A DNA stretch of 64,000 nt from Escherichia coli (GTDB lineage Bacteria > Pseudomonadota > Gammaproteobacteria > Enterobacterales > Enterobacteriaceae), in assembly GCF_016903815.1 (NCBI RefSeq), contig NZ_CP069973.1; one strand, given 5' to 3'. Under the pieces are notes generated by a model, which saw only the letters and a program-made list of their open reading frames with translations, searched no databases and was not told the DNA's origin. How positions within the stretch are numbered: position 1 is the stretch's first letter; each line of letters opens with the position of its first letter. Made by a program: the position numbers and the translations under genes. Below, piece after piece: positions 32,716 through 56,496 of the stretch.

Positions 32716-32775
32716 ATAACCCTCTAATTCATTGTTATTTCAGTAAAAACTTCACATCTGTGAGGTTGTCTGGTA

Positions 32776-34317
<1,542 letters not shown>

Positions 34318-35972: not shown

Positions 35973-36214
35973 AAAATGCATCGGTTGATCTCGATGGAAG
36001 GACACAACTGATAGATCATGTTCTTGGACTTCTTACTGAATACGGCATTGTGTTCAGTAAAAGCGCAACAGAATTACGCCCCAAATTACCGGCATTACTT
36101 GAGGATGCGGCGATGCTGTACCTGCGGATTGGTACATGCCGTCTGAACAATATGGCTCCAGAAAAATGGCTGTGAACCGCCCCGGGTTTCCTGGAGAGTG
36201 TTTTATCTGTGAAC

Positions 36215-37105: not shown

Positions 37106-37428
37106 TTTTTCCAGAGGCGGTCGAACTCCGCCTTCGCAAAATAAGCGGAAGCCTGGCGAAGGATATCGTTACTGCGGCGCAGTTCACGATTTTCACGTTC
37201 CAGCTCTTTCAGACGCTGACGTTCAGCGCTGGTGAGCCCACCATCACCGCCCCCGGTATCCCGCTCATGCTGGCGAACCCAGACACGCAGAGTCTCCGGC
37301 GTACAGCCAATCTTTGGAGCAATGGAACAAATTGCCGCCCACTGTGAGTCATATTCATCCTGACTTTCCAGAACCATACGAATCGCCCGCTGACGGACTT
37401 CGGGGGAAAAACGAGTATTTTTAGTCAT
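37102..37428 (-). CDS. insE: IS3 transposase OrfA (HTH)
   Basis: 108-aa translation [20 protein letters not shown]... recognised as IS3 InsE. Confidence 0.85.
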
Positions 37429-37453
37429 CCTGTTTACCTCTTTCTCAGGGAGT

Positions 37454-40400
37454 TTAGTCTCCAGGATTTCCGGGGCGGTTCAGCTGTTCATTAAAACGTT
37501 GTCCAGGCTGATCATAAAGTGCGCGTAATGTCTCCGCGGATGGCCGCGGTTGCATTTGCTGCATGCAGGGTTTCTGGTGGTAATCAAAATACTGTGGCAG
37601 ATGCTGGATCTCTGCTTTGTTTTCAATTACCCGTTGAAGGGCTCTTTGACGCAACTCTCTTGATGATTTGTCACGGATCGATTCCAATTGTAGCTGGCTG
37701 CCGCTACTAATTCGCTTACGAGCAGCATCAAAATCAAAGCGAATAGCCAATAGACTCGGCGTAGTCTCACTTAGCTGCAATTCCCCTAATTGCACTGATT
37801 CACGCTTATCTTTAATATAAACAATGATCTTATCATCAAGTTCAAAGCTGAGGTCAGCACCGGATTCCGTAGTATATGGGTAGAGTAAGCAACCACTCGG
37901 TGATTCCTGAAAGTCAGTAGAGTCGATGTTGACTATATCTCGTAGGTCTACTTCTGTATCAGATAATGCCTGCCATAACTCAATTGGGCTTGACTCACTA
38001 CTATCGAAGTCATCTTCATCCATCTCTTGATTAGGATTAGCTCGCTCAATGATGGCATCAATTACTGGCTCGAGGTTAAACAGTAGTTCAATAAAAGTAT
38101 TACGCTGATTAAGTGAGCCACGTTGTAATGAAAGTTGAGTATTAATTTTAGCCTGGGAATATTTACCAGCCTTTATACTTTCTTCGATCGATAATCCTTT
38201 TTCATACACTATTCTATTAATAGTGCGATTATCAGGATCTAAGTCTATCAATAGCCGCTCTCCTAGGCCAGTGATGTAACAACGCAATTCATGCGCAAAG
38301 CGTGGGTTAGATGACCAGTTACATTGAAAATAATAGATCCCATCATTTTGTTCTAGAAGCTTCACTTCTTGCGGCCAATCATCTGTGCCCCAGCAAACAG
38401 GAATTACCTTATCCTGTGACTCAGACGCCACAACTTGATTAATCTCAGCTTGTTCCGGTGCTCGAATTGACTGCAGCAAAGGATCGAGCGCGATAGGTAT
38501 ACCGTCAACGGTTTGTTTTGCGCGTTCTAGCTCAGCCTGCACCAGTACTGGCATATCTTCACTAAATAGCTCCTCCACCATACGATATACTGCAAAGCAA
38601 TCTCGCCCAAAAGCATCAGTACTTTCGGGATTCTCTGGCTGGTAGCGATTATCTGCAGTTAATTCATCACTGAATTCAAGCAATCCAATCAGAGTAATTA
38701 CTGTCTGCTCCCCGACTTGTACCAGCAGTTTCTCTGGGCAAAGATCTCCATGAGGTAACTGCTTTTCATGAAAAGCATGAATGGTGTTGATCAACTTTTC
38801 CGCAATTGTAAAACGTTGGGATTGTACTAACACGTTCTCAGCAATAAACTGTGACCACGGTAGGCCATCCACATACTCGCTCACTACATACAAGCCGCCT
38901 TGTCCTAATAGTCCATAGGACTGCACCTTAGGAGTTGGCAGATTTATATGCGTAAGCTTATCGATCCGTTGCTTAAAAGCGTGGATACGGCGGTTAACAC
39001 CAGGTTGTTGAGGGGTCAAAATAACACCATCCCACAATTTTACCTGCAGAGCTTTCCCACCTTGTTCACAGTGATAACTGATGCTGCCAGTCGTAGCAAT
39101 AGCAGCAAGAGCAGAGTAAACCATAGACAACTGTTCAGGAAGTGGAGGAAACTCAATTAACACACCAACGCTGTTCATCCCTTCGCGAAAGAATTTGTTT
39201 TGCTTTAATTCTTGATAAATCTGGTTAGCTTCATCAAATTCTTGGCTATGTTCCTTAGTAGCTGCATTAAACTCATTGAGCATTATGTCCGCACGTGGAA
39301 AGCGTTTACTTGGCTCAAGGTTAAGAGCTTGCTCAAACCAGCTATTTAGAATACCGCTAAAAGGATCAGTTAATGGAGCTCTCCATTCAGGCATCTGTCC
39401 AGGAGTCAGTAATGATTCACCTGCAAAACAAATACGATAAGCAATTACAGCCAACATGAATACATCTAGGCGATAGGGCTCAACTGCTTCTTCAAAAGCA
39501 TCTTCGGGCAAAATATATGGAGCACTTTGCAATGTCGGACGCAATGACTCTAGGCTATTATGTCCCTCCAGTGAGGCTGCGCCAAAGCCAGTAACGACAA
39601 TGCTCTTCTGATCCCCTGCGTACCATAGATTGTGCGGGTCAATATCACAATGACTGATACCCAAGCTATGTAATTCCGAGAATGGAGCTAATAATGCACG
39701 AACGCGATCAATACGCTCAGATTTACTCCATCCGTCAGCTTCGCTATCTAGAATCTCATCTAATCGGCTAAAACTACGGCGTAACTCATACAGCTCACGG
39801 GCATCATCAGTTATATCCTCCTCGGATAGTTCCCTTACAGCACGCAACATATAATCCTGCATAGTTGCGCTGCCATGACGAACTAGGCGACCGACTCGAG
39901 TCTCACGCAGAGCTATCTCAGCCCACAATGTTTGCATTGCGTTTGCTACACCCAAGGCATCAAAGTTCCACTGCCGTAGCAGACCTCTGTGTTGACTATT
40001 GTCTTTGTGGGTAGCCCTGAATTCGTTGTAGACCATGTGAGGGTGACTAAAGAATGGCTTATCGTTCGCAAGATAACCGCTTTCTTTTAGTGGCAAAGGC
40101 CTGACTTTTGGTCCTTCAAAGAAGGACTTAATTATAGGTAATGCCTCATCAGAATTTGGTCGAGGCTTTCCCCCTTCAAAAAGATGAAAAAAGTTAGTGT
40201 GTTGCACCAGCTTTTCGTAATTTTTTGGGTTACCTATAGTCAAGAATTCATCACGGGTATGAACATAGCGCCTCTCACTTAATGGCAAGTTTTCAGGACC
40301 AGCTGTGCCACACAGCACTACATGAGCCTCAACATGCAAAAAGTAACCCAGCTTACGAGATAACTCTTCCTGCAACAAATCTTTTAGTCGCAGTGCATGC

Positions 40401-40678
40401 TCACGCTTGATCTGATAGGGACTTTTGCCTCGTGACTTACCATTTTGCAGCCACTTCCCCCCTTCAAATGTGATGTTACCATTCCACTCTTTAAGCTCGA
40501 CTAATAGCAGACGGTCAGCAGTAATAATTAGCATATCGATTTCCATCGACCCTTGGCTATCAGTAACAACTAAGCCAGCATAGCCAAACCAACTATCTGG
40601 TAACTGCTTAACCATCATATCAACTGTTTTGGTTTCGCTGCGGTGCAGGCCAGCACCACCTACTATCTGATACTTCAC
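37454..40678 (-). CDS. 1074-aa protein with N-terminal NERD-like nuclease domain and two protein-kinase-like regions; 3' end runs into IS3
   Basis: NERD-like motif [21 protein letters not shown]; kinase catalytic-loop-like motifs [10 protein letters not shown] and [10 protein letters not shown]; last about 9 codons and stop lie inside the IS3 inverted repeat. Confidence 0.7.
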
Positions 40679-42594: not shown

Positions 42595-43480
42595 ATGAAT
42601 ATCCGTATCTGGAGTGGTATACTCCCCTGTATGGATATCTCCGCTCTCAACACCACGAATGACATCGAAAAACTGCGTGCTATGGCACTTACCATGGTAC
42701 AAAAAGTCATGTCGGAGAATGCCGAAAAAGAGCGGGAATTACTGGAGAAAAGCCGGCGCATCCAGCTTCTGGAAGAAATGCTGAAACTGGTTCGTCAACA
42801 GCGCTTCGGTAAAAAATGTGAAACGCTGGCTGGTATGCAACGCTCCCTGTTCGAAGAGGATGTTGATGTCGATATCGCCGCGCTTACCGCACATCTGGAT
42901 AAACTGCTCCCGCAATCCCCTGAAGAAGACGAAAAAGCGTCCCGTTCACGCCCGATACGCAAACCCTTACCGGCTCATCTTCCACGGGTGGAAAAAATTA
43001 TCCAGCCGGACACTGACCATTGCCCTGAATGTGACGAGCCGCTGCACTATATCCGTGATGCGGTGAGTGAAAAGCTGGAGTATATTCCCGTTCACTTCGT
43101 GGTGAACCGTTATGTCCGTCCGCAATACAGTTGTTCCTGTTGCCAGAAGGTGTTCAGCGGTGAAATGCCGGCACATATCCTCCCGAAAAGTGCCGTTGAG
43201 CCATCAGTCATCGCACAGGTGATCATCAATAAATACGGTGACCACCTGCCTCTGTATCGCCAGCAACAGGTCTTTGCCCGTTCAGTGTCGGGCTGCCCGT
43301 CAGTTCGATGGCTGACATGGTTGGCGCGGCGGGTGCCGCATTATCTCCCCTGGCGGCGTTACTCCATCGCGAGTTGATAAACCGTCCGGTGGTGCATGCA
43401 GATGAGACTACCCTGAAGATCCTGAACACTAAGAAAGGCGGTAAATCCTGCTCCGGTTATCTGTGGGCAACCAGCCTTCC
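42595..43480 (+). pseudogene. IS66-family transposase (TnpC), frameshifted and 3'-truncated
   Basis: Zn-ribbon CPECDEPL ... CSCCQKV, then HADETTLKILN in another frame; homology ends near 43480. Confidence 0.65.
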
Positions 43481-44274
43481 GCCTCGTCCGGATCCGCTGT
43501 TTCCAGTGTCATCAGGAGCCGGCTGCATGCTTCCCCTGCCGTTTTACCCAGCGTGGCCCGCTGCGAAAGACGGATGCGGTTTCCGGCACCCAGCCCACTG
43601 CGGTTATCGATATGGACCTTAACCGGATCGGGTTCGGTGATAAGTGCGCGGGTATCCGGTGCCAGCAGACTCACCAGAGCCCGGATGCCTTCAGCATTGC
43701 GGGTGGGTAATCGCATGGCACCCAGTAAGGCCAGGAAACGGGAAACCGGCGTTGCCACCTGTTCAGCGGTGCCGGGTATACCGAGTCCGACCAGTCCCAG
43801 CAGACACTGCGATGTGGCATCGCGCCCCCCCTCCTCGAAAGTGGCCGGATACGCATATTTTCGCCAGATCCGGTAGTACTGGGTGGTGATGCGGTGGCTG
43901 AAAATATCCAGAAATGAGGTGAGCGCCTCATGTCCTTCACGGCGCTGCGCAATATCATCCAGCCAGGACGTCGGCAGAGGTGAGTCCACCCCATACATTC
44001 CGAGAAATGTCGTGCGGATCGTTGGGGGTAATGTCGGACGGTCTTCGTCGATCTCCACCGCTTTCAGGGTGCTGACCGGGAATCCCATCCCGGGCCAGGG
44101 CCTGAATCGCACCGGGTCATCGCCCGGATGGCTGGTCGTGCCCAGTTTTGGCCCGTCCGGATTTTCCAGCTCCAGCAGCTGGCAGAAACGATAAAAACTG
44201 GCCCGCCAGATATCGTTGTTAAGGGCCAGGGCCTGCGTCAGCCCGGTACGTGCTGGCTGTGATTCTCTTTTCAT
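43429..44274 (-). CDS. tssG: type VI secretion baseplate protein TssG, C-terminally truncated
   Basis: N-terminal FYRFCQLLELE...DPVRFRPWPGMGFPVS pattern of TssG; abuts IS66 remnant. Confidence 0.6.
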   Translation of the reverse strand: MKRESQPARTGLTQALALNNDIWRASFYRFCQLLELENPDGPKLGTTSHPGDDPVRFRPWPGMGFPVSTLKAVEIDEDRPTLPPTIRTTFLGMYGVDSPLPTSWLDDIAQRREGHEALTSFLDIFSHRITTQYYRIWRKYAYPATFEEGGRDATSQCLLGLVGLGIPGTAEQVATPVSRFLALLGAMRLPTRNAEGIRALVSLLAPDTRALITEPDPVKVHIDNRSGLGAGNRIRLSQRATLGKTAGEACSRLLMTLETADPDEAEGWLPTDNRSRIYRLS

Positions 44275-45929
44275 CTCAGTCGTTTCCCTGTGGGTTGCAG
44301 TACCAGTGTGAGCTGGTTGAAAAGGTGAACATCAGCATAGAGCGCAAAGAAACGGTGCAGCATCTCCCCGAAGAGATTCACATCGCCCTCGCCGGCAAAA
44401 TTATCCATATTCAGCGTGACCTCAATGTCCACGCCACGGAGCATAAAGCCCTTTTCAAAACGGCGGATCAGGGTGTGCTTCACAGCAACGATGGCTTCAA
44501 GCCGGCGGCGGTTCATTTCATCGTCGGTCCAGTCATAGAGCGCCAGCGTCCCCCGCAGCACCTCCGGATTGTCCATCATGCTGAGAAAGTTTGATCCGAG
44601 GTGACTCATCACCCGCCAGTGAAACCGGTCATTTGCCGGGGGATACAGTGGCATCGTCGGTGCGGTCAGGTTCAGGACTCTGACGGGGACTTTGCCGGTT
44701 TTGACCACCCTGTCCAGGAGCGTACTTTCCAGCGCCCTGCGCGGAAGCTGCCCGTTGGTCGCGGTGATTCGCATCGAGAGGGACTCCGGTTTATCGGACA
44801 ACTGCTCCAGCTCGAACGAACGCCCCCCGAGAACTAACCATGTGTCATACAGGCCGGAGGGTCCCCGTTTCACACGGGTGTGGTAATAACGTTCAGGAGC
44901 ATCGTGGCGCATCATACCGCCCCGGTGCCGGAAGCTGGTGAACGGGACATAAGGGTGTCTGCCGTTCTTCACCGAGCCGTGAATGTTATCGACGCTGTAA
45001 ATTTCGGTGTGACCATCCTGAAGACGCAGCGGCCTGAGCAGGTACTCGTTATCCAGCGGGTTAAGGATCAGCGGGTCGGCTTCCAGGGTAAAGAGATTGA
45101 TAACCGGCGCACAGTGCAGGCGGAAGTTTTCTGTCTCAAAAGGCAAACCGGATGACCAGGCTTCACTGAGCACAATGTCGATTTCAAACCAGGTACTGGC
45201 CGCAGTGAGCCCAATGGTGTCGAGGCCGCGCAGTTCAACAAACATAAACTTCGGACGGAAGCTGAAATACTCCAGCAGCAACTGGTAACCACTGAAGGCT
45301 GTATCAGCTTTCTTCCACAGGCAGTCATTGTCGTCAAAGCCCATGGGTCTGCACCAGCCGTCAAACTGACGACGTCCGGTATATGTCCCGGCATGACGCG
45401 CATACATGGCATGTACACGCCGGGTCATTGCCAGATGTAGCGCAGCACTTACCGGCGCCTCTGCGTTAAGAAAAATGGCGACTTTGTCGATCCCGGCTTT
45501 ACTCCAGTCCACTTTTTCAGGGCATTCGAAGCGCAGACGGATAGCAGAGCGGCCATCGGATTCAGTATGGAGACGGGCATCTGCAAGGTGCAGCGGTTGT
45601 AGCAACACATCGCGGGTCGCCCGGTACTGGCAGGCGGTTTTATGCGGCCCGACAGGACGGGACAGAACGGAAAAGCCTTCAGCCAGTATTTCGGCCTGAC
45701 GCAGACTACGCCAGTCAGGCGAGAACTCAACGATGGCCAGCGACGGGATAGTCCGCATATAGTGCGGCCACAGCAGACTCACCAGACCTTCGGTGAGCTC
45801 CGGCAGGTCATCATCCAGCTTTTCACGCAAACGTCCCATCAGGAAGGCAAAGCCTTCAAACAGACGTTCCACACTGGGATCGCAGGCACCAGGCTTATCC
45901 AGATTCAGCATTGCTGACGTAATCCACAT
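44271..45929 (-). CDS. tssF: type VI secretion baseplate protein TssF (N-terminus possibly frameshifted)
   Basis: VERLFEGFAFLMGRLREKLDDDLPELTEGLVSLLWPHYMRTIPSLAIVEF pattern of TssF; upstream 73-aa ORF is in a different frame. Confidence 0.6.
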   Translation of the reverse strand: MWITSAMLNLDKPGACDPSVERLFEGFAFLMGRLREKLDDDLPELTEGLVSLLWPHYMRTIPSLAIVEFSPDWRSLRQAEILAEGFSVLSRPVGPHKTACQYRATRDVLLQPLHLADARLHTESDGRSAIRLRFECPEKVDWSKAGIDKVAIFLNAEAPVSAALHLAMTRRVHAMYARHAGTYTGRRQFDGWCRPMGFDDNDCLWKKADTAFSGYQLLLEYFSFRPKFMFVELRGLDTIGLTAASTWFEIDIVLSEAWSSGLPFETENFRLHCAPVINLFTLEADPLILNPLDNEYLLRPLRLQDGHTEIYSVDNIHGSVKNGRHPYVPFTSFRHRGGMMRHDAPERYYHTRVKRGPSGLYDTWLVLGGRSFELEQLSDKPESLSMRITATNGQLPRRALESTLLDRVVKTGKVPVRVLNLTAPTMPLYPPANDRFHWRVMSHLGSNFLSMMDNPEVLRGTLALYDWTDDEMNRRRLEAIVAVKHTLIRRFEKGFMLRGVDIEVTLNMDNFAGEGDVNLFGEMLHRFFALYADVHLFNQLTLVLQPTGKRLR

Positions 45930-46168
45930 TCAACAGTGCAATACGCAACCGTTCTTCCGGCCCTGCCTCTGTCTGCCGGCACTCATCCAGGACATCCTGC
46001 CATTGCCGGCGAAGACGGGGCGATTCATTCAGTTCTGTAAAACAGTATTTATCCGCCAGATAATCAATTCGTGTACGCATACTGAAAAGAATTCCGTATA
46101 AAGATTCAGCAGACAAAACTTTATCAGTCTGTAAAAATTAACGGAAGAGTCGATATTTCTCCCGGTCA

Positions 46169-46711
46169 TCACCGGATGATTGTTGCAATAACCAGTGGCA
46201 TCAGAGACTGAACAGCCGTTTTTAACGCAACGTATTGCTCTGATGTATCAGGCCGGGTAACCCGAAAACACCTTTCCACCCGACATTGTCCGCCCGTATC
46301 CATCCCCCGCCAGGTCTGCTGCAGTAAATCCACCACTTGCGAACATTGTTCATCAACTGTGACACTGGCTCGCGGGTGACAAATACTCGTCTGGCTGAGC
46401 AGCAACAGGCATCGCATTGTTGCTCCTCCATGTTGTTCCCGCAACCAGCGTAATACCACCGGCGATGATGGACTGGTCGTGTGATTACGCTCAGTAATAC
46501 GTTCATAAAAGGAAGTACAGAATGCATGAATCTGTTGCCCGTTGATGTTTCCTTCTGCCGAATGGAGCGTGAAGTGAAATGCCAGCAGACGCGGCCAGTG
46601 GTCCACCCCCTGCTGAACAAAACGCCGGATTTCCCCCGGCGCTGAAAGTAAGGCTTCGGTTATTTGCACTATTTTACCCCTGTGAATTTTGTTAAGCCGG
46701 TGCAGACACAC
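46169..46711 (-). CDS. hypothetical protein
   Basis: 180-aa ORF only; no recognisable motif. Confidence 0.3.
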   Translation of the reverse strand: MCLHRLNKIHRGKIVQITEALLSAPGEIRRFVQQGVDHWPRLLAFHFTLHSAEGNINGQQIHAFCTSFYERITERNHTTSPSSPVVLRWLREQHGGATMRCLLLLSQTSICHPRASVTVDEQCSQVVDLLQQTWRGMDTGGQCRVERCFRVTRPDTSEQYVALKTAVQSLMPLVIATIIR

Positions 46712-46936
46712 GGAAAACGCACATCAACACCAGCACAGTACGATACAAACACCAGTGACTGACGGGACGAAAGGAATAACGAATCAGTCAGGAAAGAGCT
46801 ACAACCTGCTGGCTGACCGGAGAGGGTCAGCAGGAAAATGAACGGTAATGTCGCCAGCACCAGGGACAGAGCTGATTTCCGCAATACCAGCGCCGGCATT
46901 TTGCACATTGCCAGCGTACCGGCATCACAACTCGTT

Positions 46937-47170
46937 TCATGCTGCTCCTCGTGATTCCTCAATTCGCTGCTGCATCCACTGCTCTACTTCACTTTTGTAC
47001 CAGCGGCTGCTGCGCCCCAGTTTGATGGGTTTAGGGAAATGGCCTTCACTGATCAGCTTGTAAAACCATTTGTCGGTCATACCAGTGAAGCTGGTGATGT
47101 AGTTCATGTCGATCAGGGGATCGTCGGCACGCAGCAATACGCTGTCGTGACCTGTCATTGAGGTCAACAT
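46937..47170 (-). CDS. alpA: AlpA-family phage transcriptional regulator
   Basis: ISEGHFPKPIKLGRSSRWYKSEVEQWM matches AlpA HTH pattern; start may be internal. Confidence 0.75.
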   Translation of the reverse strand: MLTSMTGHDSVLLRADDPLIDMNYITSFTGMTDKWFYKLISEGHFPKPIKLGRSSRWYKSEVEQWMQQRIEESRGAA

Positions 47171-47238
47171 GGTCAGAATGTCCTCTGTGAGATTTATGAA
47201 TGTTGGGCAAATGCGGGTGAATCTGCTGAGCTGAGCTT

Positions 47239-47841
47239 TCAGAGCTGGCCTGCTACGGGATACCAGGGATTACCGGCGAGGTAACGGGCTTCCGGATCGC
47301 GCACACCACGACGATCGCGGGCGAAATCACTGAACGCCCATATCAGCTCTTTGAGTCTCTCTTCGCAGTCCGGTGAACAACTGTCCAGCACCACATCCCG
47401 GGTGATCTGCTTCTGGTACGGTGCTGCTTCACCCGGTGATGCGAAGCCCAGTACGTTGCTCCAGGCATCCAGAATCAGCCGATCCAGTTCAGGGCCGTCG
47501 AAATACTCCTGTCTGACGCACAGCACCACGTGGTATTCCGGTTTTTCAGGATGACGTGTCAGGAGCCAGCAGAGGTCACGTCCGGGTGTTGCATTCATCA
47601 GCGCACTGACGGTTTCGATAAAGGCCATACCGAACCAGGTTTTTCTGTCGCTGAAGATGTTGCCATGTTCCCCCGGCAGACGAAGCAGGATCCGCCGTAT
47701 TCGGGAGCAGGACTGCTCGCGCAACACACGGTTGAGAACGCCGATGATTTTGTTCTGATAAGATGGCCAGAAGGGGGCCAGGCTATAGTCGAAATAAGGG
47801 ATAGCATTCATAAGATATGCTCCGTTATGCGCAGCCCACAA
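47239..47841 (-). CDS. inovirus Gp2-like (YagK/YfjJ family) protein
   Basis: Shares YHVVL..R motif pattern with the paralogs at 48069 and 51308. Confidence 0.55.
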   Translation of the reverse strand: MWAAHNGAYLMNAIPYFDYSLAPFWPSYQNKIIGVLNRVLREQSCSRIRRILLRLPGEHGNIFSDRKTWFGMAFIETVSALMNATPGRDLCWLLTRHPEKPEYHVVLCVRQEYFDGPELDRLILDAWSNVLGFASPGEAAPYQKQITRDVVLDSCSPDCEERLKELIWAFSDFARDRRGVRDPEARYLAGNPWYPVAGQL

Positions 47842-48068
47842 TGCGTCCTGCCCGTGAATAAGCTGACGTGTTATGGTTTGCGGATGGGGTTGATGGAATA
47901 AGTGAAGAACCGGGGCAGAACGGGAAGATCAGGTCACCGACAAGGGACAGAACACCGGATGTGGTTCAGAGTGAATGATCTCCGTTGACTTCAGTTCACA
48001 TCATTAAGCAAGGCGGTAAGGTTTTACCGACGGAATGTTTCCAGGACAGGAAGCTCAGGATTTAAGCT

Positions 48069-48635
48069 TCAGAAGTGAGGCTTACGAGGACGCCCTGCAG
48101 CAGGTCGTTCAGGAACTTCACTGCAACCGTATGCGCACAGTCCGTCTTTTTGCTCTTCTTTCGCCAGATAATGCAGGACACCGCGAATATTATCGATGCT
48201 CCCGGGATCGTTATGACGCACGGGAATGTTGATGTTGTATGTATAATGCGGCTGATATGTACAGCGGTGTGCCGAACCGCTGTTATGCGTAATAGACTGC
48301 CAGCATTCCGTAATCCGCTCCGCAAAGGGATATATTTTTTTAACCCTCTGACGATCGAGCCAGAAAACCGCATGCGCATGAAAACCATGATCAGCCGTCC
48401 ATTCAATCACCCAGAAGAAACCAACGATATTTTCAAATTGTTCCACCTGCTCCAGCAGCATACGCAACTGCAATTCAAGCCAGCGATGATCAGGTTGTAA
48501 GAAATCAGGCGTATCTTTCCTGTAGAAGAAATCCATGCGTAAGGCCCGCAGGCGGGAATAGCGTGCGACCAACTGATTGATGTGATTGTCAAGTAAAGCG
48601 GTAAAAAACCAGTTTGGTGTGTAAGATTTAGGCAT
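48069..48635 (-). CDS. inovirus Gp2-like (YagK/YfjJ family) protein
   Basis: LRALRMDFFYRKD ... FHAHAVFWLDRQ motifs. Confidence 0.65.
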   Translation of the reverse strand: MPKSYTPNWFFTALLDNHINQLVARYSRLRALRMDFFYRKDTPDFLQPDHRWLELQLRMLLEQVEQFENIVGFFWVIEWTADHGFHAHAVFWLDRQRVKKIYPFAERITECWQSITHNSGSAHRCTYQPHYTYNINIPVRHNDPGSIDNIRGVLHYLAKEEQKDGLCAYGCSEVPERPAAGRPRKPHF

Positions 48636-50179
48636 GCTGATGACTCCTGAAAGTTAATGACGTTTTAAGTGCTGTAAACGAATTAATGCTTTCGCTCATA
48701 ATCAGATCTAAAACGGTAATAACTTACAGACGGTATTTATCAGGCATGCTGTAACAGAATGGATACGTCGGTTATTAACGACACACAGCGTTGTGCTGAA
48801 GGGTATGAGTTATCTGATGGCATTGTCTATAGAGATGAGATAAACGAGGTGCGAAGAAAATACAGATTCAATACAACACAGTGAAATACAGAAAAATACG
48901 AACTGTAATCCCGCTGCCAGGCGGTTAGGAAACATATTACAACTATAAGCTCATGGTTTGTAAATTTGCTCTCAGTGAGTCTGAAAAAACGTTTATAAGG
49001 TCACCACAATAAACTCACACGCGCTTATTCAATCTGTTCTCCAGGATATGAACGTTAACGACACACGATAGCATAAGACAACATACAATGGATGAATAAT
49101 TTTCACCCAGTACCTTAAACAATACAACCGGCAACAAATATAATCAGAAATTCACTCTGTTAATTCTGTTGTTTATCCTGCGCTGTTAAACATGACGGAA
49201 CCATGGATACCTTATCAAAGAGTAAGCATTCAGTTAATCAGTAATGACAGAGAAATTGATGTTCACCAGAATAGTTAAAACACTTCAGATAAACAATCAT
49301 TGTTAAGCAAATACGGTTCATAATGGATAAATTAGAATCAATTACTGTTTTACTGAAGATGAGAATAGATGAATATCAACAATAGCGTAGTAGAGAATAA
49401 CTTACCTGAACATCATATGAGTTACAGTAGTTATGATTGAGGGATGGAGTGAATACGATAACAAGAGTAATACTAATGGAATGTGTAAAGATTGAGAGTG
49501 AGTGAAGACAGGAAGTAAATAACAATAGAGATTGTATGAAAAAGGGAGTGAATAAAGAATATATAAAGAATAAATATAATTATAGTAATAAACCTAAATT
49601 AAAATCATCCTTGTTTGATGAGTAAAAATAATTCTAGAAAATGAATCTGTCTGAAAACTCTTTCTCAGAGATTAACCGATCAGATGCTCAACGGACTCAA
49701 TAAATTGGCTGAGTCAGGTTACCTCATCCACACTCTATTTGTTTCTAGAAGGATCTACCATTTTGTTCATCTACCGGAACACATCAATTTAGTAACTCGA
49801 TAATATCGGTTATGTAGATATTTATCGTTGCTACCAATGCCTAGATTATTATTCTCCAAGTATTTTCTTGACTTACAGGCTAATTTTGAAACAAATGTCA
49901 TGCTATTTTAGGAAAAGAACCTATGCAAAAGTCTGCTATGAGCGAGGAGCAGATATTCATCTGGTATACAAAGACAATATCGCTTAAGTCATCAGTGCTG
50001 CCACTTTAACCACTAGCTCTGCTCTTTTTGGACTTTTGAGCTAAAAATTAAATCTGACAGTGTGATAAGGTGCAAGTTTCTGAAAATACGCCAGTTGTTT
50101 TACACTCAAAAGCCCCCATTACTATCTGATGTTAATGGCGCAGCAGTTATCTTTCAGATTATTAAGGGGAAACAAGAGT

Positions 50180-50884
50180 ATGGCAAGATGTACAGCTCCT
50201 GTACGTGGACATAGCTCAGCAGCAGCTGCTGCTGCCTGTCCCGCATGTCGTAATCGCAGTGGTTATCGCCGCAGTAGCTACAGTTATGATAGTTACCCTT
50301 CTTACTCATCAGGCTCTAGCGGTGGCGGAAGTTATGGAGGCAGTAGCGGTGGTTCCAGCAGCAGCGCGAAGCCACGTTGGTCAAAATCAGGGTCTTCCGT
50401 TTCTTACACAACAGCCCAAGTACAATCACTCACACCAATTCGACAAGCGGTAGAGAAACTTGCCATTGAGCAACCTGATCTGCGTGATGTCTTTCTTTGC
50501 CATGCTTGGGATGACCGACAAGGTATTGCCAAAGAGTTACACGATTTGCTCGAAGCGGCAGGTGTCAAAGTATGGTTCAGCGAAAAGGATCTTGCCCTTG
50601 GTGTTCCGATGATGCGTGCCATTGATAAAGGATTAGCAAACTCTCGAATCGGCTTGGTTTTAGTGACACCTGCATTGTTAAACCGTCTTCCTAAAGAAGG
50701 CGTTGCTGATAAAGAACTTTCCGCCTTACTGGCAGGCAACCAACTCGTTCCCATCGTGCATAACACGACGTATGAAGCTCTCCGTAATGTCAGTCCTTTG
50801 CTTGCATCCCGAAGCGGCCTCGACACGGGAGAAGATACATTGGCAGTTGTTGCAACAAAAATTGCAGAGCTGATCACTGTTTAG
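50180..50884 (+). CDS. TIR-domain protein with Ser/Gly/Tyr-rich low-complexity N-terminus
   Basis: RBS aagggga then ATG; TIR-like motifs DVFLCHAWDD, VWFSEKDLALG, SRIGLVLVTPALL. Confidence 0.7.
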   Translation: MARCTAPVRGHSSAAAAAACPACRNRSGYRRSSYSYDSYPSYSSGSSGGGSYGGSSGGSSSSAKPRWSKSGSSVSYTTAQVQSLTPIRQAVEKLAIEQPDLRDVFLCHAWDDRQGIAKELHDLLEAAGVKVWFSEKDLALGVPMMRAIDKGLANSRIGLVLVTPALLNRLPKEGVADKELSALLAGNQLVPIVHNTTYEALRNVSPLLASRSGLDTGEDTLAVVATKIAELITV

Positions 50885-51307
50885 TTTATCCAAGCCACCG
50901 TTAAATATTTCCAGCTCATGAATCTGGTCTGCTATTGCAGGCCAGATATCAGTCAATACTGAAAGGTTTGACCTGCTCCCCGTTGATTAACATAGACTGA
51001 TATAGCAACTTCCGCTTTTGGCACAAAGCAGACCATGAGAAGATAGACGCTATAACATTTGAGTCCTACCAATCGATCTGTTCATTTCCATAAATGGCAG
51101 TAAATGCAAATAACCAGAACAGCCAGGCGCTTTTCGACTTATGGTCGATGTTGCAAAGAGTGAGGAGTGGAAAGCAAGCGTGCGAACGAAAGTAGATGGC
51201 AATCCATTGCATTACTTCAGGACGACTTTTCAGAAAGCGAGCTAAGGGCGTCAGCCAACGCCCTTACCGTGGCATAAGCTCAGGCACCGGATGCCGTTTT
51301 ACAGGGC

Positions 51308-52039
51308 TCACCTGCCATCCAGTAAACGCCCCGGCCCACGACTGCAACCATAATTACGTTGACCAGAACCGTCATGCTGCTTCGTCTCATACTTCACGAG
51401 ATAACAGGCTCTCTCCATGGCTTTCTGCATCGCTTCCACATCACCACGCTTGACCCAGAGCACAGCGGATCCACCAGATTTTTTGTCAGAAGCTTTCCGG
51501 GTATCAGAACATCCACCCGACAAAGGCGTATCATCGGAAGAAGGGCGAGCATCAGATGATGCCGGTTTACGGAAAGGCGTCCGCCTGGAAAAATGAACCA
51601 GTCCATTACCCTGCCAGGGTTCAAGATGCAGAGCGCTACACCATGCCAGCTTGATCAGCGTCGCCAGCGAAGAAGGAACGGTGAAATCCCCTAGCGAGCA
51701 CCAGGTATCTTTGTTGAGCAGTAATATCACGTGATAATGTTTCCTGCCTTTTTCCTTGCCAAACTCCCGACACCAGAAATAACGCAGAGTGGTTGCACGC
51801 ACACGCTTGTTGGCACGTCGTTTATGTCGCTGGTAAGCCTGAATTTTTGCTTTCAGGGATTCGAAAAAACGAGAAATCACCGCTGAATCCGAATCGGGAT
51901 CCATGATGGTGACAGGCATATACTCAGGGAAACGTAAATCCATCCGGATTAACGAGACGACACGGTGTTGCGCCAGGGCACTGTTGAGAATACTTTCAAA
52001 ACGGGATAACCAGTAAGCATTGTGTATTGGTTGATTCAT
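51308..52039 (-). CDS. inovirus Gp2-like (YagK/YfjJ family) protein
   Basis: VSLIRMDLRFPEY ... HYHVILLLNKD motifs. Confidence 0.65.
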   Translation of the reverse strand: MNQPIHNAYWLSRFESILNSALAQHRVVSLIRMDLRFPEYMPVTIMDPDSDSAVISRFFESLKAKIQAYQRHKRRANKRVRATTLRYFWCREFGKEKGRKHYHVILLLNKDTWCSLGDFTVPSSLATLIKLAWCSALHLEPWQGNGLVHFSRRTPFRKPASSDARPSSDDTPLSGGCSDTRKASDKKSGGSAVLWVKRGDVEAMQKAMERACYLVKYETKQHDGSGQRNYGCSRGPGRLLDGR

Positions 52040-52883
52040 GATGAGAGATCTCCGTTGATTTGGATTGACTTCACATCATTAATCACCGCGGTAAAACTTT
52101 ACGGCATCCCGCCATTGAGCAACGCCAATGGCTCCTGATTAAAACAGAATGAATCCCCCACGAAGAAAAAATAAACCTACACGCAGAGTAAAACACACAA
52201 CAACGGCATAAATGGTTTTTAAAAACTACAAAGCCTGAAGGGAAACGGATCCACAGAACGTGCAAACAAAACACCAAAAACGCAATCAGAACGCTTTCTG
52301 CTGCTGTGAATCAACAACAATACCAAAACCTACAGCTTAACCACAAAACTCAATCACAGAGCCGAATAGCGTGTTTAAAACCTGTTTACAGATAACCCTG
52401 CCACAAGAACAAAGTTCACCAATATCAGAATCGATTTTCTCATCCTGAAAATGTTACGTTTCACTACACAGCATAAAAACGATTAACTATTGATAACGTA
52501 AACCTCATCTGAATCAAAACACCAGAACCAATCATCACGCTTTTCCTGAAAAGAGCCTTGCGCTGAGAAAAAACACCAGGGTCAGTTAATCATCTCATCA
52601 ATCTCATCGTTACAAAAACATCCATAAAACCATTTAACAAAATCATCGTAAGCACACAGTAAATCACGCCAGGTTATCTCAGCCAAATTTTCGTTTTACA
52701 TAAAGACACTTGTCTCAGGTTAACGACTAAAAACACAAAAACTCAGAAAAGGTTAAACGTAACTTCAGAAAAATAGAATATCATATTGATTGCTTAAACA
52801 GGAAAGATTGTTTTGTAGTAGCATTAAGCTGATTTTAGTTAACGTAAAAACAGGACTGACAGGTTTACTAAACTGGATGTGTA

Positions 52884-53100
52884 TCAGACAAAGCAATGTG
52901 TATAACAATACTTAATGAAAACACTTGTAGAATTGTTTATGAAAATACGTGTATGTCTGGTAAAACACTTAGTAGAAAATACGTGTATAACACTTACTGA
53001 AATGCTTAGTAAAAATACTTAGTAAAATATGTGTAGAATTATCTATTTAAAAAGATATGTATATAACACTTAATAAAAACATGTGTATATAGTATCATAC
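52884..53100. repeat. iteron-like array of degenerate direct repeats in AT-rich intergenic DNA
   Basis: Recurring GTGTATAACA(A/C)T..A.TGAAAA and TGTAGAATT.T.TAT..AAAA units, 2-3 copies each. Confidence 0.4.
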
Positions 53101-53730
53101 CGACATTCTCAACATCTTCAGACTTCCATACATACTGGGTGTTGATTTCTCACTTTTACAGCCAGCATGGAGTTTTCTGTCCTAAAAACAGAGCAGATTT
53201 ACTCTGGAATTATTTTTCTACCCCCGTATTTCAGGCCCCAGAAAAGACAATCCGAAGCAAACCGTTTGTCAGCCTCCATATCATCTTTTACCCCCGGAAA
53301 GTGATCGCGTTTACAACCAGAATGACAGCCATACTGATTATGTCGTCTCCCGGCCCCCTTCACATATAACATGCATGTCTGTCATTGCTTACTGCTCCAC
53401 ATGACCGGATTTCACATACAGGATGCACATTCAGTGTTTTTATCGCTACTATAACAGACAGATTACTGTCGTCTTTACTCTTCAGATTGTTAATCTGACC
53501 ACAAGAACAGCCGAACGGCAAAACGCCCTCCACAAGGGGCACATGAACCATAGTTGATAGCATGTTTTTCCTAATCAAGGAATAGTTCAGGAATATTTTA
53601 TTGCATTAATAACTGGCGAATAATCGTTCTGTGAACACAAAATGCTTTTATTTGTAAATTTTATTGCATTGCACTCGTTTTATTGATATGGGGTTTAATA
53701 ACAGATAACCCGGAAAGAAGGAGAAAACAG

Positions 53731-54522
53731 ATGACATTACGGATTAACGATCAGGGGCGAGATAAACAGAATCAATTTTTATCGAAAAATGGAGAAAATC
53801 TGAATTCGTTAAAATCGCGTCATGTGCAGGATAGGCATTTACCTGAATGGCTTAAGGATAAAGTTGCAGCATTCTGGTTTTGTCTGGTGATAAAGGATAT
53901 GAAAGTGTCAGGGAGCAGTTACTATGAACTTACCATGCAACTTCCCACTTCTGAAGAATCTGTTTGCATCAGTAAGCTGTCATCCTCAACCCATGAGATT
54001 CGGCTGGAGATCATCAGGCGATGGATTGATAGTGTAGCGCAGATAGAAACGGAAGCTTTTACTAAAAATCTCGTTGATGCCATCTATAAAAACTGGAAGG
54101 AAATCGGGAACAAAAACCAGGCCACATGGCTTAAAAAAAATCCGGAACAACTCGAGTGGGCATGGAAATATATTAACATTCGTATTCCCGAGTCACATTT
54201 AACCTGGTTTTGCCCCGTCAATAACGAAGAGAAACGCATTGCCATCTTAGCATTGCTTAAAATACTGTATCCCGGAGATATACCATGCCAGTACAACGAC
54301 AAAGAGTTTCATGTCGGGATCTGCGCTGAAGAACATTTTTACAGAAGAATGCACGACGCTTTCAGAAAACAGTTTATCGACGGGAAAAAAGATAAACGGG
54401 TACAAATTAACGTAAAGATATCACCGTCCGCAAAAAGCGCTCTGGACAGACTGACCAGAGCGAGGAAAACAACACAGCAGGCTATTCTGGAACAACTGAT
54501 TCTGAACGGTAGACTGGATTAA
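53731..54522 (+). CDS. hypothetical protein with C-terminal RHH/HTH-like tail
   Basis: RBS aaggag then ATG; tail ...SAKSALDRLTRARKTTQQAILEQLIL; contains an A8 homopolymer at 54133-54140. Confidence 0.5.
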   Translation: MTLRINDQGRDKQNQFLSKNGENLNSLKSRHVQDRHLPEWLKDKVAAFWFCLVIKDMKVSGSSYYELTMQLPTSEESVCISKLSSSTHEIRLEIIRRWIDSVAQIETEAFTKNLVDAIYKNWKEIGNKNQATWLKKNPEQLEWAWKYINIRIPESHLTWFCPVNNEEKRIAILALLKILYPGDIPCQYNDKEFHVGICAEEHFYRRMHDAFRKQFIDGKKDKRVQINVKISPSAKSALDRLTRARKTTQQAILEQLILNGRLD

Positions 54523-55505
54523 CTTTCACTACTTCCACTCCTGGCAGTTTTCCTCTTTTTGTAGTGTCTCCCGGCTGCAGGCATCAGGTACTTTTCCGTC
54601 ATTTCGTTGCAGAACTCTTCAATGTAGTTAATCAGCTTCTGGTGTGCTTTCACCTTTTCTTCCCCGGGGGACGCTTTCAGATAAATGTCCTCCTTTTCCA
54701 CAAGTGTATTTATAAACTCTCCCGGACATCCCTGGTTATAAAGCAACGTGAAAAACAACACATTCCCCAGTCTCTCCAGTAACTGCGATTTAACCCTGTA
54801 TTGTTGTTTGCTGAGGATTGATTGTTTTATAAAGCTTAGTCTTGTTAAAAGTTGTTCAAATCCCGGTTCCAGTTTAAAAACAGATTTTAATACCAGGGAC
54901 TGATACTCCTGATAAAAAAGTTCAAACGTCGGGGATGCAGACTGACGAACAGATTTGGCTACAACCCATGGACTAAATCCCATGATTGGGATTTCCTTCG
55001 CTCCCTCCAGCGCACTCAGAGGTAGTCCAGCAATCCATGCGTCCAGCTTAGCCGAATCAATATCCCCGCTCAAAACCTCATACAAACTGCCCGTGAACGG
55101 TTGAGTCGGTTTTTTTGTTGTTTTACCTTCTGATTGCCTGAATCCATCCACTTTTCTCCGGATATTACGCGGAATCAGCATAAAAGGCGGGACATTAAGT
55201 GATAAACGTTTACCCGTCATACGATACCAGTGGCCCACCTCAACCTTAATCCGTGTATCTGGCCTTGTATCTGGCCTTGTATCTGGCCTTAGCTCAAGTG
55301 CTATTATGTTAAGCAGGTACAGATAACGCACCGTATAACAGTCAAAATGTTTCTCCGGATCAAACGGCTCTGATCGTTCTCTGCACACAAGTCCGCTGCG
55401 CTTCAGTATTCGCTGGGTATCTTTCCAGGCCTTACTCTGAAGAATGGTGGTAACTCTGGCTTTATTAGCAATCTCACGCAGCGCATCACTTTGTTGTGCC
55501 GTCAT
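54519..55505 (-). CDS. hypothetical protein containing (RPDT)x3 tandem repeat
   Basis: ORF with RBS ggaggg before MTAQQSD; convergent with, and 4-nt overlapping, the previous gene. Confidence 0.5.
   Translation of the reverse strand: MTAQQSDALREIANKARVTTILQSKAWKDTQRILKRSGLVCRERSEPFDPEKHFDCYTVRYLYLLNIIALELRPDTRPDTRPDTRIKVEVGHWYRMTGKRLSLNVPPFMLIPRNIRRKVDGFRQSEGKTTKKPTQPFTGSLYEVLSGDIDSAKLDAWIAGLPLSALEGAKEIPIMGFSPWVVAKSVRQSASPTFELFYQEYQSLVLKSVFKLEPGFEQLLTRLSFIKQSILSKQQYRVKSQLLERLGNVLFFTLLYNQGCPGEFINTLVEKEDIYLKASPGEEKVKAHQKLINYIEEFCNEMTEKYLMPAAGRHYKKRKTARSGSSES
55253..55292. repeat. 12-bp in-frame tandem repeat (tggccttgtatc, about 3 units)
   Basis: Seen directly; encodes RPDTRPDTRPDT on the minus strand. 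Confidence 0.6.
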
Positions 55506-55611
55506 CTCTTCCCTCCACACTTTGTCACTCCAGATTTTTTCACGTCCATATTACCTGAATGATAAACCGGATTAGTGTGATCCGGTTCAGCGAAATCAAC
55601 AGGATACCGGT

Positions 55612-56496
55612 ATGTCATTCAGCCATTCTTCCCTCTCTGCACAAGTGAAATCATATCTGACGTTTCTTCCTGAAGAAATTCGCCAGAAAATCCTTGAACA
55701 TCTCCACGGTGTTATTCATTACGAGCCCGTGATTGGCATTATGGGTAAATCCGGCACAGGCAAAAGCAGCCTGTGTAATGCCATTTTTCAGTCCCGTATC
55801 TGCGCCACGCATCCCCTGAACGGCTGCACCCGCCAGGCTCATCGTCTTACCCTGCAGCTCGGTGAACGCAGAATGACGCTGGTCGATCTGCCCGGCATTG
55901 GTGAAACACCGCAGCATGATCAGGAATACCGGACACTTTATCGTCAGCTGCTACCGGAACTGGATCTGATTATCTGGATCCTACGGGCTGATGAACGTGC
56001 GTATGCTGCCGATATTGCCATGCATCAGTTTTTACTGAATGAAGGTGCAGATCCCTCGCGTTTTCTGTTTGTTCTCAGCCATGCCGATCGCGTGTTTCCT
56101 GCTGAAGAATGGAACGACACAGAAAAATGCCCGTCCCGTCAGCAGGCGCTCTCACTGGCGACGGTGACAGCCCGGGTGGCAACCCTGTTCCCTTCATCAT
56201 TTCCGGTACTCTCCGTTGCTGCACCTGTCGGCTGGAACCTTCCGGCGTTTGTGTCGCTGATGATCCACGCACTGCCACCACAGGCAACCAGCGCGGTGTA
56301 TTCACATATCCGGGGAGAAAACCGCTCTGAACAGGCCCAGAAACACGCACAACAGACTTTTGGTGACGCCATCGGGAAAAGCTTTGACGCTGCCGTTGTC
56401 CGGTTCAGTTTTCCGGCCTGGATGTTACAGCTTCTCCGTAAAGCCCGGGACCGCATTATCCACCTGCTGGTCACACTGTGGGATCGTCTGTTCTGA
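55612..56496 (+). CDS. YeeP/YkfA/YfjP-family GTPase
   Basis: P-loop GIMGKSGTGKSS; CP4-type backbone position. Confidence 0.8.
   Translation: MSFSHSSLSAQVKSYLTFLPEEIRQKILEHLHGVIHYEPVIGIMGKSGTGKSSLCNAIFQSRICATHPLNGCTRQAHRLTLQLGERRMTLVDLPGIGETPQHDQEYRTLYRQLLPELDLIIWILRADERAYAADIAMHQFLLNEGADPSRFLFVLSHADRVFPAEEWNDTEKCPSRQQALSLATVTARVATLFPSSFPVLSVAAPVGWNLPAFVSLMIHALPPQATSAVYSHIRGENRSEQAQKHAQQTFGDAIGKSFDAAVVRFSFPAWMLQLLRKARDRIIHLLVTLWDRLF

Follow-up and report, generated by a model that had tools for sequence, protein, structure and literature searches.

The segment between positions 46937 and 52039 of the 64,000-nucleotide stretch of Escherichia coli DNA analyzed here (the window) belongs to a backbone conserved in a large family of E. 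coli islands that integrate at tRNA genes and are related to CP4-57, CP4-6, and CP4-44. These limits are exact, since alpA has its stop end at 46937 and the rightmost of the Gp2 genes begins with its start codon at 52039. Taken as a whole, the locus is probably best explained as a conserved, divergently transcribed island backbone that contains a cassette built around a 188-aa protein gene and a TIR gene carried as cargo, with roles for the AlpA, Gp2-like, and TIR proteins that are predicted from their sequences. The island is located at tRNA-Phe (18802-18877) and adjoins the kps capsule genes. As expected of a CP4-like tRNA-integrating island, the tRNA and a P4-type tyrosine integrase, recognized by its integrase domains (19075-20337), were found at one end and a GTPase-to-CbtA block at the other. 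This right-hand block encodes GTPase, DUF905, DUF932, antirestriction, RadC, DUF987, YeeU, CbtA, and DUF4942 proteins, all on the plus strand, and is 67-94% identical at the DNA level to K-12 CP4-44, CP4-6, and CP4-57. It opens with a YfjP/YkfA-type GTPase gene (55612-56496, plus strand; annotation and NCBIfam GTPase matches) that is divergent from the minus-strand Gp2 genes. IS elements and pseudogenes are abundant across the surrounding island, and given this extensive decay by IS elements, excision of the island may have ceased.

A preliminary description of this DNA had placed alpA and three YagK/YfjJ-type genes on the minus strand, opposite to the plus-strand backbone. All of these assignments were confirmed, the third paralog by profile methods only. 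The accompanying proposal, that in this genome these genes form an inverted or separately acquired module compared with the CP4 backbone, was not supported. It would fit the observations that the alpA and Gp2-type genes are co-oriented with the GTPase-to-toxin backbone in K-12 CP4-57 (alpA, yfjI, yfjJ) and CP4-6 (yagK) but opposed to it here, and that the module lacks detectable DNA similarity to the K-12 elements, whereas the backbone has it. However, a census of 5426 complete E. coli genomes, in which the block was counted when at least 80% complete, recovered the alpA-paralog block in 1334 genomes, with 2 places per genome as the median and 10 as the maximum; the same leftward orientation and gene order were repeated in more than 1300 genomes and in every sampled locus. 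The arrangement of minus-strand Gp2 and plus-strand GTPase genes was collinear in most of 1898 genomes. Further, in HD12480 the genes read from left to right as alpA, yfjI, and Gp2, the order of CP4-57, yet each gene is on the other strand; because the order is kept while every gene is flipped, turning a CP4-57-like module around once as a block cannot account for the arrangement. Protein identities to the K-12 counterparts are merely 25-30%, so any difference must be ancient. A local inversion was rejected, as close relatives of this strain carry the block in the same orientation, and an event of inversion or separate acquisition in this genome is improbable. The divergent layout of Gp2 and GTPase genes is ancestral to the island lineage, with no local inversion.

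The three minus-strand paralogs differ in how readily they can be recognized as members of the YagK/YfjJ (Gp2) family. The 243-aa protein (51308-52039) is the nearest to K-12 YfjJ and YagK, with about 30% identity to each, and matched the YagK_YfjJ_C profile PF11726 with an E value of 1.1e-35 (123.5 bits; cut-off, 25.8). It also matched PF23343 (REP_ORF2-G2P; 6.9e-9) and replication-initiation PHROGs. The 188-aa protein (48069-48635) narrowly exceeded the PF11726 cut-off at 27.9 bits, and its alignment to the YfjJ/YagK profile by hhalign was significant (E value, 3e-5; 165 collinear columns). The gene for the 190-aa protein (47239-47811), so delimited by the PGAP start in an open reading frame that extends to a TTG at 47841, is named hypothetical in RefSeq, and its product had no match in Pfam, NCBIfam, PHROG, or PADLOC; compared directly with PF11726, it scored 11.7 bits (E value, 0.26), under the cut-off. 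By profile-profile comparison with YfjJ/YagK/g243, the same protein was aligned over 143 columns with a probability of 97.2% and an E value of 2.8e-11 (hhalign), and P0077, which is 36% identical to it, matched PF11726 at 41.8 bits (1.4e-10). These comparisons support the 190-aa gene as a cryptic, degenerate member of the YagK/YfjJ family. In the absence of profile methods, only two of the three paralogs are recognizable.

The paralogs also differ in their catalytic motifs. Both features of the HUH superfamily, a His-hydrophobic-His motif and a C-terminal Tyr-x-x-Lys, are present in the 243-aa protein (H-Y-H and Y-L-V-K), where they are retained in orthologues, and in the 188-aa protein (H-A-H and Y-L-A-K), where they are retained in every orthologue. 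The 190-aa protein has E-Y-H at the HUH position and W-A-F-S-D in place of the Tyr motif. Both motifs are uniformly absent from its family and the Tyr position is Ser-Asp, so the Tyr-x-x-Lys feature is lost in this paralog. Fold searches with the model of the 190-aa protein returned generic ferredoxin-like matches only, with HUH proteins merely among them.

That the three genes arose as recent tandem duplicates might be considered, as they belong to one family, lie adjacent on one strand, and share an upstream element in two cases. Against this, pairwise BLASTP comparisons were non-significant and aligned identities were 17-20%, a depth of divergence that recent duplicates would not show, and each paralog has its own set of orthologues in other islands at 80-97% identity. 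The comparison of paralogs suggested in the preliminary description therefore rules out near-identical duplicates, and the chance of a recent origin is negligible. The three genes are very old and very different copies.

Besides the paralogs, the conserved leftward block contains alpA and opens with the gene for a 166-aa protein (46169-46669, minus strand, in an open reading frame to 46711) that RefSeq names a UCP030791 family putative phage-derived protein (PF27752). Its relatives carry PF27752, and NCBI gives some homologues the name inovirus Gp2. Comparison with YfjJ/YagK by hhalign was not significant (E value, 0.1), a weak PF11726 match was seen in 2 of 18 members (best E value, 0.018), and the His-hydrophobic-His motif is absent. 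In an AlphaFold2 model (pLDDT 65), the predicted order of alpha and beta elements equals that of the 190-aa paralog. This protein is possibly a fourth, fully degenerate Gp2-like relative. Between this gene and alpA lies a 79-aa hypothetical open reading frame (46669-46908, minus strand) that PGAP predicts in a single RefSeq annotation and that had no match in a Pfam search. The 77-aa AlpA/Xis-family helix-turn-helix protein (46937-47170, minus strand) belongs to PF05930 (E value, 1.9e-10; 40.9 bits; cut-off, 21) and matched the PHROG "excisionase and transcriptional regulator" (7e-10); its identity to K-12 AlpA is 25%.

Ratios of dN to dS, calculated from only 4 to 8 orthologues per gene, ranged from 0.06 to 0.35 across all five genes: 0.06 for alpA, 0.30 for the 166-aa gene, and 0.16-0.35 for the Gp2-like genes (0.16 for the 188-aa gene and 0.35 for the 243-aa gene). 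By this measure, the 166-aa, AlpA, and three Gp2-like genes are under purifying selection, the motif-less paralog included. The name "inovirus Gp2," the wealth of IS elements and pseudogenes in the island, and the loss of catalytic residues from one paralog could all be taken to mean that the Gp2-like genes are debris left by a filamentous prophage and have no function. However, the reading frames are intact and constrained across islands, two of the paralogs have invariant HUH and Tyr motifs, and the block is conserved in 1334 genomes. No inovirus gene besides the Gp2-like genes was present among the open reading frames and annotations of the locus. Debris is thus a very improbable description of these genes.

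A cis element of about 60 nt links two of the paralogs. Copy A (47962-48027, minus strand) precedes the 190-aa gene by about 150-215 nt, and copy B (52032-52102, minus strand) runs into the ATG of the 243-aa gene; the two form a direct repeat. The element contains a GTAA-N4-TTAC palindrome, an invariant TTAATGATGTGAA box, and ACGGAGATC. Its core 13-mer was found upstream of all 190-aa-type and 243-aa-type genes in the sampled loci and was absent from the K-12 loci. Its presence at both genes suggests an ancient duplication inside the lineage and not independent acquisition, which argues further against the separately acquired module of the preliminary description.

One part of the block is separable. 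The 188-aa gene is preceded by an AT-rich, unannotated leader (48636-49603, minus strand) that accompanies it in about 1600 genomes, in matches that carry no annotated feature. In an alignment and a divergence profile, only the proximal ~180 nt and a single-copy, 29-nt motif at the outer edge (49575-49603) are strongly conserved. Jukes-Cantor divergence was 0.03-0.06 near the 188-aa gene and 0.12-0.32 elsewhere, compared with a dS of 0.14-0.20, and most of the leader evolves at about the synonymous rate. An Rfam search of the leader gave no match, and its small open reading frames were not conserved in the alignment. Beyond the leader is a variable cargo segment (49633-51183, plus strand), whose breakpoints were defined against other islands and which holds the TIR gene here. 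In other strains this slot contains pseudouridine genes, dsdCXA (D-serine), YfjI, an nSTAND NTPase, a restriction endonuclease, H-NS, or IS elements, and 361 genomes have a compact junction that lacks both cassette and slot. Only the 188-aa gene, its leader, and the upstream cargo make up a separable presence/absence cassette, with the cargo slot on its outer side.

The TIR gene (50180-50884 from the PGAP start, with an open reading frame from 50129; plus strand) stands alone between the 188-aa and 243-aa Gp2 genes. As the preliminary description had claimed, it is an insertion between paralogs: it was found in 91 of the 5426 genomes, compared with 1334 for the flanking block. Its product matched PF13676 (3.7e-15), and its best sequence matches in the PDB are PdTIR, BtpA/TcpB, and AbTIR. 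The possibility that it supplies ThsB to a Thoeris system, or that it forms a defense system jointly with the flanking Gp2 genes, is raised by a full-length match to its best PADLOC model, ThsB1 (PDLC00424; E value, 3.6e-128), which assigns it to the TIR-domain ThsB proteins, by MkoA nearby, and by the NTPase and restriction enzyme that occupy the same slot elsewhere. However, the adjacent ThsA effector of Thoeris (SIR2-SLOG or Macro/TM) was not found: no SIR2, ThsA, or Macro annotation was present within 20 kb on either side, the tested neighbors gave no PADLOC match, and no adjoining SIR2- or ThsA-type gene was called beside homologues in Pseudomonas, Yersinia, and Pectobacterium. A joint system with the Gp2 genes is also at odds with the rarity of the TIR gene relative to the block and with its contexts elsewhere, which are unrelated in Pseudomonas and Pectobacterium and, in Yersinia, a related island at a different position, after cbtA. 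We regard either form of partnership as highly unlikely. The protein is 77-97% identical across many genera, and the gene is true cargo, a horizontally mobile single gene that has no ThsA partner. While it shares the TIR domain with Thoeris ThsB and with the stand-alone TIR NADases AbTIR, BtpA/TcpB, and PdTIR, it differs in lacking ThsA, in having a conserved, Ser/Gly/Tyr-rich N-terminal region, and in occurring as a single gene in varied contexts. The defense gene near TIR in this island is Mokosh MkoA, as called by PADLOC.

Comparison with known systems suggests how these genes might function. The AlpA protein is of the same helix-turn-helix family (PF05930) as AlpA of CP4-57, AlpA of Shewanella CP4So, and P4 Vis; it is equally small and is likewise encoded on an island with a P4-type integrase. 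Unlike in CP4-57, alpA lies 26 kb from the integrase gene; it is transcribed from the other strand, within an operon that includes Gp2-like genes. AlpA of CP4So was shown to act as an excisionase (PMC5148205), and by analogy the AlpA-type protein of the window would serve as excisionase or activator for the island integrase and promote integrase-dependent excision.

A literature search found no biochemical or genetic function for any YagK/YfjJ protein. Among HUH initiators, filamentous-phage gpII (PF23343) has the same order of motifs, an N-terminal strand motif followed by His-hydrophobic-His and Tyr-x-x-Lys, and the window proteins are predicted to resemble this group in their ferredoxin-like fold. 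By contrast, they are less than half as long as gpII, which has about 410 aa, and are not accompanied by other phage genes. The motif-intact 188-aa and 243-aa proteins may nick island DNA at a nearby site through a covalent 5'-phosphotyrosine intermediate, which would initiate rolling-circle replication of the excised circle or supply a helper with single-stranded DNA. The analysis pinpointed neither a nick site nor an origin, and the candidate sites are the shared 60-nt element, the 29-nt motif, and an iteron-like array described below. The motif-less 190-aa paralog could be a DNA-binding regulator, the 60-nt element could co-regulate the 243-aa gene and the 190-aa/alpA operon, and the TIR protein might act alone as an NAD-consuming anti-phage or addiction effector.

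Alternatively, the Gp2-like proteins may no longer be nucleases and may control island transcription by binding DNA, for instance through autoregulation or by counteracting H-NS silencing. The proteins are small and single-domain, conservation extends to the motif-less paralog, two of the genes are preceded by an operator-like palindrome that has an invariant box, and the leaders are AT-rich; moreover, H-NS silences alpA promoters in a related element (PMC5148205). However, the His-x-His and Tyr-x-x-Lys motifs are strictly retained in orthologues of the 188-aa and 243-aa proteins despite 10-20% overall divergence, and DNA binding alone would not explain their retention. A purely regulatory role is accordingly unlikely, albeit worth considering, and nicking by the two motif-intact proteins is preferred. 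A bolder extension, that the HUH-type array and the 60-nt, 29-nt, and iteron-like elements constitute the replication or mobilization apparatus of these common "non-autonomous" islands, with the motif-less paralog as a dedicated regulator and the 188-aa cassette creating and refreshing the cargo slot, is put forward as speculation and is improbable.

Overall, the locus is ordinary, a standard and widely shared island core. YfjJ of CP4-57 and YagK of CP4-6 are of the same family (PF11726) and size (about 200 aa) as the window genes, and their tRNA-integrated islands share the GTPase/DUF932/antirestriction/RadC/YeeU-CbtA backbone. The window differs in having three copies, possibly four, where the K-12 elements have one, in the orientation of these copies against the backbone, in the loss of catalytic motifs from one copy, and in a resemblance to YfjJ and YagK that is far lower for the other two paralogs than for the 243-aa protein. 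The combination of int, alpA, RadC, Gp2-like, and HTH genes has been proposed as the core of a widespread class of islands carrying defense cargo (bioRxiv 10.1101/2024.08.29.610337). By gene content, the Pseudomonas tmRNA-site islands I23, I44, and I55 of that study and their relatives have the same proposed core set, variable cargo that often serves phage defense, and no autonomous transfer genes, while their host and attachment site differ; transfer by a jumbo phage was shown for I55 only.

The new details of this locus are the ~60-nt cis element that precedes two paralogs, together with an iteron-like repeat array (52903-53088, plus strand) located in the intergenic region that separates the 243-aa gene from the divergent rightward genes. 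The array consists of 5 copies of AAAAYAYKTGTAK interleaved with 4 copies of AAYACTTARTR, and Tandem Repeats Finder reported a period of 13. The 5 copies of AAAAYAYKTGTAK are exact matches within ~170 bp; with at most 1 mismatch, the whole window contains 8 matches against 1.3 expected, and AAYACTTARTR has 4 matches against 0.16 expected. The cluster is kept at the same position in 4 other islands.

The preliminary description had placed alpA and three YagK/YfjJ-type (inovirus Gp2-like) paralogs on the minus strand at 46937-52039, flanking a TIR gene, and all four genes are present there. The alpA gene (46937-47170, minus strand) matched PF05930 well over the cutoff. Of the paralogs, named here by protein length, the 243-aa gene (51308-52039, minus strand) was a strong member of PF11726 that also matched the PF23343 Rep/G2P family and replication-initiation PHROGs, and its product shares about 30% identity with YfjJ and YagK. 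The 188-aa gene (48069-48635, minus strand) was barely over the PF11726 cutoff, and its product was collinear with the YfjJ/YagK profile (E 3e-5). The product of the 190-aa gene (47239-47811, minus strand), annotated as hypothetical by RefSeq, had no match in four HMM libraries, and its close family is restricted to E. coli. An exhaustive HMMER search with this protein recovered E. coli-type relatives and just two others, at 32-36% identity, one of which matched PF11726 (1.4e-10); a 1480-aa match was discarded as a repeat artefact. Alignment of the 190-aa family profile with a YfjJ/YagK/243-aa profile gave a probability of 97.2% (E 2.8e-11). Together with the PF11726-matching relative, this alignment indicates that the designation of three paralogs was right, the third being detectable by profiles only. 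The paralogs are also as divergent as proposed, with no significant pairwise BLASTP match and 17-20% identity in a joint alignment.

This joint alignment displays three HUH-type nickase motifs. The His-x-His motif (HYH in the 243-aa protein and HAH in the 188-aa protein) and the Tyr-x-x-Lys motif (YLVK and YLAK, respectively) were invariant in all sampled orthologues. The 190-aa family carries E-Y-H at the HUH motif (C-Y-H or F-Y-H in distant relatives) and, without exception, Ser-Asp at the position of the catalytic Tyr. All of these genes, the cryptic motif-less paralog included, are under purifying selection: dN/dS values from small samples were 0.06 (alpA), 0.16 (188-aa gene), 0.24 (190-aa gene) and 0.35 (243-aa gene). 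A further gene left of alpA (166-aa gene; 46169-46669, minus strand) encodes a protein with the same order of secondary-structure elements as the 190-aa paralog, and a few of its homologues carry the NCBI name Gp2. Profile comparisons of this family gave non-significant hhalign E values of 0.1 and 0.12 and weak Pfam matches for 2 of 18 members; it is possibly a fourth, fully degenerate Gp2 relative.

Since the HUH and Tyr motifs are strictly retained, it is suggested that the 188-aa and 243-aa proteins are DNA-nicking enzymes that replicate or process the excised island, and the motif-less 190-aa paralog may serve as a DNA-binding regulator. The main alternative, that the Gp2-like proteins are purely regulators, would have to accommodate this motif retention, and no functional study of YagK, YfjJ or Gp2 was found in the literature. 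In a related element, members of the AlpA family serve as excisionases and are silenced via AT-rich promoters (PMC5148205). An island class has been described with a core of integrase, alpA, RadC, Gp2-like and HTH genes and with defence cargo, one member of which moves by phage transduction (bioRxiv 10.1101/2024.08.29.610337). The two motif-keeping paralogs, their motif-less derivative and a shared upstream element offer handles for tests of island excision, replication and movement, and these features also bear on the accumulation of cargo, such as the TIR gene, at one spot.

The shared upstream element, about 60 nt long, is common to 47962-48027, upstream of the 190-aa gene, and 52032-52102, around the start of the 243-aa gene. 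It contains a GTAA-N4-TTAC palindrome and ACGGAGATC. At the sampled loci, an invariant 13-mer, TTAATGATGTGAA, lies upstream of each 190-aa-type and 243-aa-type gene; this 13-mer is absent from the K-12 loci. The 190-aa copy has CTG, CTT or TTA where the 243-aa gene has its ATG. This noncoding element was retained while the proteins diverged to 17% identity, which favours an old duplication, control region included, as the probable origin of the 190-aa and 243-aa genes. Because the element is shared and retained, we infer that the 190-aa/alpA operon is under common control with the 243-aa gene. An iteron-like array is present at 52903-53088, some 900-1050 nt from the 243-aa gene on its upstream side. 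It comprises five copies of the 13-mer AAAAYAYKTGTAK and four of AAYACTTARTR, all on one strand, and is kept in four other islands. The array and the 60-nt element are candidate protein-binding sites. Promoter and terminator consensus scans showed no enrichment relative to shuffles, and an Rfam scan of 45500-56000 (E up to 1) returned a lone chance-level match, within the 243-aa gene. A strong strand asymmetry of base composition was observed in both long leaders, at 49400-49560 and 52100-52900: on the minus strand, one stretch is poor in G and rich in C+T; on the plus strand, some 800 nt of the other are rich in A+C, with GC skew to -0.36 and AT skew of +0.28.

The leader of the 188-aa gene, an AT-rich region at 48636-49603, has no annotation, and about 750-930 bp of it travels with the gene in about 1600 genomes. 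Clear constraint was confined to the proximal ~180 nt and to 29 nt at the outer edge (49575-49603). This outer motif, which reads TTTAATTTAGGTTTATTACTATAATTATA on the minus strand, includes TATAAT and is nearly invariant beside highly variable adjoining sequence. A constrained RNA or an origin was rejected as an explanation of the leader, most of which diverges at about the synonymous rate; small open reading frames in it were likewise dismissed, as they are not kept between islands.

Beyond the outer edge of the leader, the sequence varies by strain. The TIR gene occupies this slot in the window, and elsewhere it holds pseudouridine-utilisation genes, dsdCXA, YfjI, an nSTAND NTPase, a restriction endonuclease adjoining the 243-aa gene, or H-NS or IS elements. 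Site-specific cargo junctions were rejected because the breakpoints vary between islands, some of them due to IS elements. Strain NMBU_W05E18 lacks 48055-51183 (the 188-aa gene, leader and cargo), such that its 190-aa-type gene abuts the 243-aa gene, and this compact junction without the cassette was found in 361 genomes. Its formation by recombination between the two 60-nt copies was discounted, since the deletion end-points do not match them. The variable slot content and the stretch missing from NMBU_W05E18 show that the earlier proposal of a TIR gene inserted between paralogs was right, and the insert is part of a cassette that both defines the cargo slot and is optional as a whole.

The TIR gene itself (50180-50884, plus strand) is flanked by the 188-aa and 243-aa genes. 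Its product gave a full-length match to PADLOC ThsB1 (E 3.6e-128) and also matched the single-gene candidate PDC-S66, and the nearest solved structures by sequence are PdTIR, BtpA/TcpB and AbTIR. Proteins that share 77-97% identity with it, the Ser/Gly/Tyr-rich, low-complexity N terminus included, occur in Citrobacter, Serratia, Yersinia, Pectobacterium, Pseudomonas, Chromobacterium and others, and homologues lie at 6001-6684 in three comparison loci from other genomes (L016-L018). The neighbours of the gene differ genus by genus; in Yersinia it directly follows cbtA, where an island of this kind ends. Despite the ThsB1-like match, no ThsA partner was found: there was no ThsA-like annotation within 20 kb in the window and no ThsA-type gene among the neighbours in Pseudomonas, Yersinia and Pectobacterium. 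The missing partner and the differing neighbours across genera indicate that the TIR gene is most probably a mobile single-gene module and not a Thoeris system.

The opposite orientation of the alpA/Gp2 genes had been read as a sign of an inverted or separately acquired module. The orientation does oppose that in K-12, where CP4-57 alpA-yfjI-yfjJ and CP4-6 yagK are co-oriented with the GTPase backbone, but a local inversion in this genome was not borne out. Of 5426 complete genomes, 1334 carry a 3.3-kb block (166-aa gene, alpA, the 190-aa and 188-aa genes and the leader) that is 80% complete or more, at up to 10 places per genome, and collinear matches from the 243-aa gene (minus strand) to the GTPase gene (plus strand) were the majority of matches in 1898 genomes. 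Orientation was identical at every locus inspected. Strain HD12480 has a YfjI gene between its 188-aa-type and 243-aa-type genes, and the left-to-right order of alpA, yfjI and Gp2 is that of CP4-57 with each gene strand-flipped; a single block inversion is excluded for this order because it would have reversed the genes. AlpA of the window is 25% identical to K-12 AlpA, the module has no similarity to the K-12 elements by DNA or tblastn comparison except at the 243-aa gene, and neither blastn nor tblastn found homology to the CP4-44 remnants yoeG/yoeH. The layout represents an architecture of its own, old and very common; its arrangement in the window is ordinary rather than a rearrangement, and the locus fits as a typical example of a known, very common island backbone. 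One in four complete E. coli genomes carries the block, frequently in more than one island of the same cell, adjoining virulence, metabolic and phage-defence cargo.

In the window, a tRNA-Phe gene (18802-18877) is followed by a P4-type tyrosine integrase (19075-20337), cargo and IS debris, the alpA/Gp2 interval and a plus-strand block (GTPase, DUF905, DUF932, antirestriction, RadC, DUF987, YeeU, CbtA and DUF4942) that precedes the kps capsule genes. The plus-strand backbone shares 67-94% DNA identity with CP4-44, CP4-6 and CP4-57 of K-12. The tRNA, the integrase type and this likeness point to a CP4-like island at pheV. The window is E. coli DNA; strain 98210 matches its positions 37483-64000 at 100% identity, and seven genomes share the ~7 kb surrounding the interval without a difference. 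Genes for a LacI-family regulator, GH32 hydrolase, PTS EIIBC, LamB-type porin and PfkB kinase at 28903-35381 form a sucrose-type utilisation cluster within the cargo. At 36172-40678, a Mokosh MkoA-like defence gene (open reading frame 37454-40678; PADLOC MkoA, E 2e-188) is truncated by an IS3-family IS1203 copy (36172-37482); strain 98210 has a full-length gene of 4959 bp with a second gene after it. Immediately left of the 3.3-kb block are type VI secretion tssG and tssF fragments (43429-45929), partial pseudogenes per RefSeq with IS66 pieces on their flanks. Some islands carry a ProQ/FinO-family gene directly left of the 166-aa gene (3897-4405 in locus L008 and 8553-8897 in L011). Between the 243-aa and GTPase genes, at 53683-55520, are two overlapping convergent genes of 279 aa (plus strand) and 333 aa (minus strand) with no match in Pfam, NCBIfam or PADLOC; in other islands a 407-aa or 176-aa gene occupies their position. 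Within the 333-aa gene, a tandem repeat with a 12-nt unit (55251-55290) encodes three copies of RPDT.
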